A stretch of DNA of 64,000 nucleotides from Escherichia phage vB_EcoM_G2540-3, in sequence record MK327944.1, one strand, 5' to 3'. The notes below the pieces were generated by a model. The model ran no database searches, was not told the DNA's origin, and saw only the letters and a list, made by a program, of their open reading frames with translations. How positions within the stretch are numbered: position 1 is the first letter of the stretch; each line of letters starts with the position of its first letter. Positions 38,540 through 38,995 of this stretch are shown in pieces. The translations under genes and the position numbers were made by a program.

Positions 38540-38995
38540 TTATTTTAAATCATCTGCCCAATCGAGTTTAAGAGGCTCTTTGTATTCACGATCTAATACG
38601 ACCGGAATTTGTACATCACCGCTAAATGATAAGGGTCCAACATTATAAGACAATGTTATATGCGGTGTGTAATCATCAAAATCATGTGTAGCACCTAGTG
38701 CCCGCGCATACATGTGTCGACAGCGCAGATATTCAGAATCTAGCACAAGTACAAGAGTCGATCCATCTTGCGTTTTCCATACTTCTAAATGTCCAGAAGA
38801 AGCTACTTCAAAACTTCCACTCGATGGAACATATGGAACATTTACTCTCGAATAACATATAGTTGAATGAATTTTTTCTCTAGGAACTGGATTAGGAACA
38901 CGTAAAGAGCGCTGAAGTTCTTCCAGCGCATCAAGTGTTAATTCTGAAAACTTAGCTGCTACATAAAGACCCGTTGAAAAGTCTTTAAATTCCAT
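38540..38995 (-). CDS. acb1: gp57B / Acb1-like 2H-phosphoesterase (anti-CBASS cyclic oligonucleotide nuclease), 151 aa
   Basis: Two H-x-T/S motifs (HSTI and HITLS) typical of 2H phosphoesterases; position directly upstream-adjacent to 57A and gene 1 as for T4 57B. Confidence 0.65.

Follow-up and report, generated by a model that had tools for sequence, protein, structure and literature searches.

Activity-guided fractionation of infected lysates identified the product of phage T4 gene 57B as the enzyme that degrades 3'3'-cGAMP, and it was named Acb1 (Hobbs et al., 2022; PMC9117128). Structures of the orthologue from Erwinia phage FBB1 (7T26/7T27) revealed a 2H phosphoesterase fold with a C-terminal lid formed by residues 145–152. 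Stacking interactions in Acb1 were assigned to Y12, W74, F107, and W147 and an adenine contact to E141, and the scissile phosphate was found positioned over an HxT/HxT tetrad (H44, T46, H113, T115), with the H44A/H113A variant inactive (PMC9117128). T4 lacking acb1 is viable and is sensitive to CBASS operons (PMC9117128). An independent transposon screen (HIDEN-SEQ preprint) found T4 57B/acb1 to be dispensable on E. coli K-12 and depleted on a CBASS-expressing host. A study of the Panoptes system saw no change in it when acb1 was deleted from T4, so the benefit of the gene depends on the defense repertoire of the host.

Here we describe the corresponding locus in a 64,000-nucleotide stretch of DNA from Escherichia phage vB_EcoM_G2540-3 (MK327944.1), referred to below as the window. 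The phage is a T4-like coliphage (Tequatrovirus), and the window is collinear with positions 32,574–99,195 of T4. Coordinates of the features at the locus, and of other genes relevant to counter-defense, are summarized in Table 1.

Table 1. Positions in the window, strand, and supporting evidence for acb1, its neighboring genes and regulatory elements, and other genes discussed in relation to anti-defense functions.
Feature	Position	Strand	Evidence
tk.4 / adfM, 155-aa macrodomain protein	26714..27181	-	Pfam Macro; T4 identity
acb2 (T4 vs.4), 88-aa cyclic-dinucleotide sponge	28864..29130	-	Pfam; T4 identity; PDB 7UQ2
nudE (NudE.1), 151-aa Nudix hydrolase	31731..32186	-	Pfam NUDIX, E = 4.1e-13
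PeSL (promoter-early stem-loop), directly 3' of the acb1 stop	38488..38526	-	promoter scan; inverted repeat; RNA fold
acb1 (57B)	38540..38995	-	PF23474; PDB 7T26; identity to NP_049750.1; catalytic/contact residues
57A, tail-fiber chaperone	38995..39237	-	Pfam GP57, E = 5.2e-51
gene 1, dNMP kinase	39237..39962	-	Pfam DNMK, E = 2.9e-106
candidate MotA-box middle promoters	40013-39986 (just upstream of gene 1); 39497-39472	-	pattern match only
candidate late-promoter consensus TATAAATA	39600-39593	-	pattern match only

Identity of the 57B Gene Product

A sequence-only reading of the window had singled out the 151-aa ORF at 38540–38995 as a likely acb1 gene on account of two motifs, HSTI and HITLS, and both the ORF and the motifs are exactly as it described them. 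The ORF, which begins with ATG and ends with TAA, is acb1, T4 gene 57B. Its product is identical to T4 gp57B (NP_049750.1) at all 151 residues, and the gene differs from that of T4 (NC_000866) at four nucleotides, all in synonymous third-codon positions. DNA around acb1 is 97–99.4% identical to many Tequatrovirus genomes. Only one Pfam family matched the ORF, namely Acb1 (PF23474; 202.7 bits with a cut-off of 27 bits, E = 2.6e-60), and the match is full length, with residues 8–149 aligned to profile positions 1–144 of 144. The crystal structure of FBB1 Acb1 (PDB 7T26) aligned with the protein over 142 positions at 67.6% identity (E = 4e-62), and this degree of identity to a 1.1 Å structure supports a predicted compact 2H phosphoesterase fold.

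T4 gp57B is annotated as 152 aa, one Met longer than the protein encoded here (ATGATG). Because 57A ends with TAA in the window vs. TGA in T4, the upstream ATG is absent and the protein has 151 rather than 152 residues. The TAA stop of 57A and the ATG of acb1 share one base (TAATG), an overlap that suggests translational coupling of the two genes. Two antisense ORFs on the plus strand, at 38698–38862 and 38712–38855, lie wholly within the conserved acb1 coding gene.

The two motifs place HST at residues 43–45 and HIT at residues 112–114, and the catalytic tetrad H43/T45/H112/T114 (window numbering) corresponds to H44/T46/H113/T115 of T4, with all four residues present. In the alignment to 7T26 they pair with the HTT and HIT of FBB1 Acb1. 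The residues Y12, W74, F107, E141, and W147 (T4 numbering) are likewise all found, each at its published position minus one, and the C-terminus that makes up the lid (residues 145–152, T4 numbering) is identical to that of T4. Taken by themselves, the two motifs are weak evidence, since a protein with five His and 15% Ser+Thr would be expected to contain approximately 0.8 H-x-[ST] by chance. As judged from sequence comparison, what decides for an Acb1 identity is the full-length family match plus the identity to T4. The proposed equivalence of the ORF to T4 57B and to Acb1 was thus borne out by the family HMM, homology to 7T26, T4 identity, the catalytic and contact residues, and synteny; both catalytic His motifs are in place in the T4 alignment. 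The ORF is the Acb1 already characterized in T4; the sequence-only reading was right, and what it found is not new.

We consider it almost certain that this ORF is the acb1 of Tequatrovirus and that its product would cleave CBASS cyclic signals and block abortive infection. Because the protein is identical to T4 Acb1, the published mechanism should transfer directly. By that mechanism the protein, a small, metal-independent 2H phosphoesterase, would bind the cyclic di- and trinucleotides produced by host CBASS CD-NTases (3'3'-cGAMP, cUA, cAAA, cAAG), and its C-terminal lid would shut over the ligand. The adenosine would be rotated and its 2'-OH would attack the 3'-5' bond, with acid-base catalysis provided by the two His-x-Thr motifs; linearization of the ring would proceed through an intermediate with a 2',3'-cyclic phosphate and yield a product ending in a 3'-phosphate, e.g., GpAp. 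With the signal gone, CBASS effectors (Cap4, Cap5, CapV, and others) would be expected to stay inactive, abortive infection would not occur, and the phage would replicate.

Gene Order and Predicted Expression

The order 1-57A-57B is the same as in T4, with gene 1 first and acb1 last in the block. The sequence-only reading had placed 57B upstream of 57A, which needs correcting: 57B has the lower coordinates, but transcription of the two genes runs along the minus strand, which puts 57B 3' of (downstream from) 57A, the arrangement also seen in T4. Candidate middle and late promoters in and before the block are listed in Table 1. A 2026 expression-atlas preprint reports mainly middle/late expression of T4 57B/acb1 and vs.4/acb2, which qualifies the term “early region” used in the sequence-only reading. 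A review of T4 prereplicative transcription, searched for promoter assignments of 57A and 57B, makes no mention of them, so the assignments rest on the motif matches and the one expression-atlas preprint. In the window phage, acb1 would probably be expressed from middle/late promoters of the 1-57A-57B block and be coupled to translation of 57A, and its product would presumably act alongside Acb2, which is encoded 9.4 kb away.

Alternative Functions for the 57B Product

The 2H phosphoesterase fold is common to Acb1 and LigT-type enzymes, and the product could in principle be mainly an RNA-end processor of the LigT/2'-5' RNA ligase/cyclic phosphodiesterase type, acting on 2',3'-cyclic-phosphate ends (e.g., in tRNA repair), with cleavage of cyclic oligonucleotides a secondary activity. 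Existing annotation agrees with this, as PHROG family phrog_755 is labeled “RNA ligase” and RefSeq gives the same label to T4 57B and many of its homologues. However, the label is a homology-transfer annotation for which we found no supporting experiment, while a protein identical to the one encoded here was isolated through its cGAMP-cleaving activity. In the 7T26 homologue, a dedicated U-shaped pocket that is closed by a lid accommodates the cyclic nucleotide, and loss of acb1 specifically sensitizes T4 to CBASS. The curated Pfam family of the ORF is Acb1, and no LigT-type Pfam family gave a significant match to the protein at E ≤ 0.1. We regard a primary role in RNA-end processing as highly improbable.

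Still less credible, to the point of being negligible, is that the product aids tail-fiber assembly together with gp57A, as the name “57B” and the stop/start overlap within one transcription unit might suggest, given that the T4 transposon library shows 57B to be dispensable on E. coli K-12 and important only on the CBASS host, that the T4 deletion mutant is viable, that normal tail-fiber assembly and burst size without acb1 on a defense-free host have already been reported for T4, and that the Pfam matches of the protein are to an enzyme family and not to a chaperone.

Other Reported and Candidate Anti-Defense Genes in the Window

The sequence-only reading had also listed further candidate anti-defense genes in the same region, and this stood for two of them, Acb2 and the macrodomain protein Tk.4/AdfM; the macrodomain and Nudix proteins both exist and have the expected Pfam matches, but the Nudix protein is without a demonstrated anti-defense role. 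For Acb2 the case is stronger than had been claimed from position, as it now includes homology: the 88-aa protein matches Pfam family Acb2_Tad1_hairpin (PF24729; E = 1.4e-19, 70.4 bits with a cut-off of 27), is identical to T4 Vs.4 at 81 of 88 residues (92%), and has PDB 7UQ2 as a structural homologue (E = 8e-52). The seven substitutions relative to T4 (E13D, E14D, G17S, L44F, N46S, C50D, and F52L) are clustered at positions 13–17 and 44–52, and they miss the T4 Acb2 residues named in the literature (Y37, A57, L60, D61, T64, T68, and F82), a set that need not include every cGAMP-contacting residue, so that specificity may still be affected.

T4 Acb2 binds cyclic dinucleotides, with a KD of ~84 nM for 3'3'-cGAMP, and does not bind cA3. 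Since Acb1 cleaves cAAA (PMC9117128), the two proteins complement each other, as the authors note. “Tuning” of Acb2 by phages was proposed by the Panoptes authors. We think it improbable that the allele in the window is such a case, with specificity shifted so that the Panoptes decoy 2',3'-c-di-AMP is bound less well, 3'3'-cGAMP is still bound, and the unchanged Acb1 covers the remaining CBASS signals.

Tk.4 matches the Pfam Macro family (PF01661; E = 2.9e-6, 27.7 bits with a cut-off of 22) and is identical to T4 Tk.4 at 155 of 155 residues. T4 Tk.4 was described as an anti-DarTG2 factor and named AdfM in one preprint (HIDEN-SEQ, 2025). NudE shares 141 of 151 residues (93%) with T4 NudE. Dinucleotide and ADP-ribose hydrolysis is given for T4 NudE/NudE.1 in a record note, and NAD-RNA decapping in vitro is described in the literature; a literature search for a counter-defense role or a defense target of NudE found none.

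The window phage has the full known T4 set of counter-defenses that remove signals or ADP-ribose, i.e., Acb1, Acb2, and AdfM. A phage so equipped is predicted to resist many CBASS types as well as DarTG2, and Acb2 may make it sensitive to Panoptes; these predictions bear on any use of the phage in therapy or host-range work.

Another small gene lies at 15418–15588 on the minus strand and encodes a 56-aa acidic protein that matches PHROG family phrog_3402, “antitoxin from a toxin-antitoxin system” (E = 1.5e-40). A Pfam match to the T7 gp5.9 RecBCD inhibitor falls below threshold (E = 4.7e-4, 20.5 bits with a cut-off of 24.5). A tblastn search of T4 between 30 and 104 kb found no counterpart (best E = 2). 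The ORF occurs in 829 phage records, mostly labeled hypothetical, and it may be a further counter-defense gene.

PeSL Elements and Internal-Protein Cassettes

PeSL elements are proposed mediators of modular shuffling in T4-like phages, in which they bound shuffled cassettes (PMC4122927, PMC2839356). The published consensus for the PST/T4 pair is TTTACW-N17-TAYWAT. The element next to acb1 consists of an early promoter (TTTACA-N17-TACTAT, 38526–38498) and a 10-bp perfect inverted repeat (38488–38497 / 38508–38517); its RNA fold has a free energy of -20.2 kcal/mol (z = -4.5), and the intergenic stretch is 100% identical to T4. In total, three early-promoter copies (TTTACA-N17-TAYTAT) lie in stable stem-loops, at 38488–38526, ~38150–38212, and 37858–37895, with z-scores for the RNA fold of -4.5, -5.7, and -2.4. 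Their stem sequences differ. The copies fit the published consensus, and each internal-protein cassette is preceded by one.

T4 ipI is absent and is replaced by two small, unrelated ORFs on the minus strand (38209–38466 and 37897–38130). Their leaders, MKTFKEF... and MKTYQEFIAE, are of the T4 internal-protein type (capsid-targeting), and both ORFs match PHROG families of internal head/virion proteins. Equivalents of the two genes are annotated as ipV and ipVI in Yersinia phage PST. In the PeSL literature, IPI*, the T4 ipI product, is cited as an injected inhibitor that overcomes the exclusion of glucosyl-HMC phages; it is plausible that the two replacement genes encode injected anti-defense proteins. 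As these variable cassettes bounded by PeSL adjoin acb1, the gene marks the conserved border of a hyperplastic region and is itself invariant.

A second group of internal-protein genes, T4 ipII and ipIII (T4 65,359–66,454), is missing at 31140–31200, and as a result denV directly follows e. The junction resembles a fusion of the denV ribosome-binding site with the PeSL that lies between e and ipIII in T4, which is consistent with a PeSL-mediated deletion. Many other phages, DalCa, HP3, CM8, and G9062 among them, have this junction at 100% identity, so this is a common variant.

Comparison of the Whole Window with T4

In the whole-window comparison, the sequence of acb1 and of the DNA on either side of it, as far as the PeSL, is essentially that of T4, and the differences are cassette swaps elsewhere. 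Three homing endonuclease genes are found at sites where T4 has none of them: an HNH type between genes 46 and 46.1 (2427–3173, minus strand), a GIY-YIG type beside gene 47 (4722–5345, minus strand), and a second HNH type between genes 13 and 14 (58546–59358, plus strand). Conversely, T4 mobB, the I-TevII intron of nrdD, the nrdC.4/nrdC.5 region (~49.9–52.0 kb of T4), and the segC/5.3 region (~80.2–80.8 kb) are without counterparts at the corresponding sites in the window.

Just upstream of tk.4/adfM, T4 tk.1-tk.3 are replaced by other small ORFs (25941–26514), which include one encoding DUF7438 (25950–26135) and one encoding a phage zinc-binding domain protein (26302–26514). Eight tRNA genes are located at 35523–36880, interrupted by a 221-aa ORF (35602–36267) at the position of T4 segB. 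The set is the same as that of T4 (Arg, Thr, Ser, Pro, Gly, Leu, Gln, and a tRNA with a CAU anticodon); the last is called Met by ARAGORN and Ile in the T4 annotation at that position. Within gene 12 (54571–56121), the part encoding the C-terminal portion of the short tail fiber (55371–55968) has no similarity to T4 detectable by blastn; the receptor-binding domain has been exchanged, as is typical of host-range variation.

Distribution and Comparison with Known Systems

With tblastn, 1485 records of a phage collection were found to encode Acb1 homologues; identity is ≥99% in at least 498 of these, with the remainder grading down to ~31–47% in phages of Aeromonas, Acinetobacter, Vibrio, and Pseudomonas. 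Many of these records are still labeled “hypothetical protein” or “RNA ligase”. The value of identifying acb1 here is correct annotation only, as PHROGs and RefSeq mislabel the founding anti-CBASS nuclease; it adds no new biology.

The source of the “RNA ligase” label is the group of LigT-type 2H phosphoesterases and 2'-5' RNA ligases, which share the two H-x-T/S motifs and the 2H fold with Acb1. Apyc1 (anti-Pycsar) and AcrIII-1 (a ring nuclease) are, like Acb1, phage enzymes that degrade cyclic-nucleotide immune signals, but their substrates are cCMP/cUMP and cA4, respectively, and Apyc1 has a metallo-beta-lactamase fold and depends critically on its metal-coordinating residues, in contrast to the metal-independent Acb1. 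Neither of the two matched the acb1 ORF in the Pfam and structure-homologue searches.

T4 Acb2 acts in the same CBASS pathway as Acb1, and both remove the signal; the fold and mechanism of Acb2 are unrelated, however, as its hexamers act as a sponge and sequester cyclic dinucleotides, while Acb1 hydrolyzes its substrates. Erwinia phage FBB1 Acb1 (7T26/7T27) belongs to the same family and has the same fold; it comes from another phage, with another host, and as an orthologue differs at approximately one-third of its residues. T4 Acb1 (gp57B) is like the protein encoded in the window in its 151 identical residues, in its site after genes 1 and 57A, and in having a PeSL downstream; the loci differ in what lies beyond that element, which is ipI in T4 and a different internal-protein cassette in the window.
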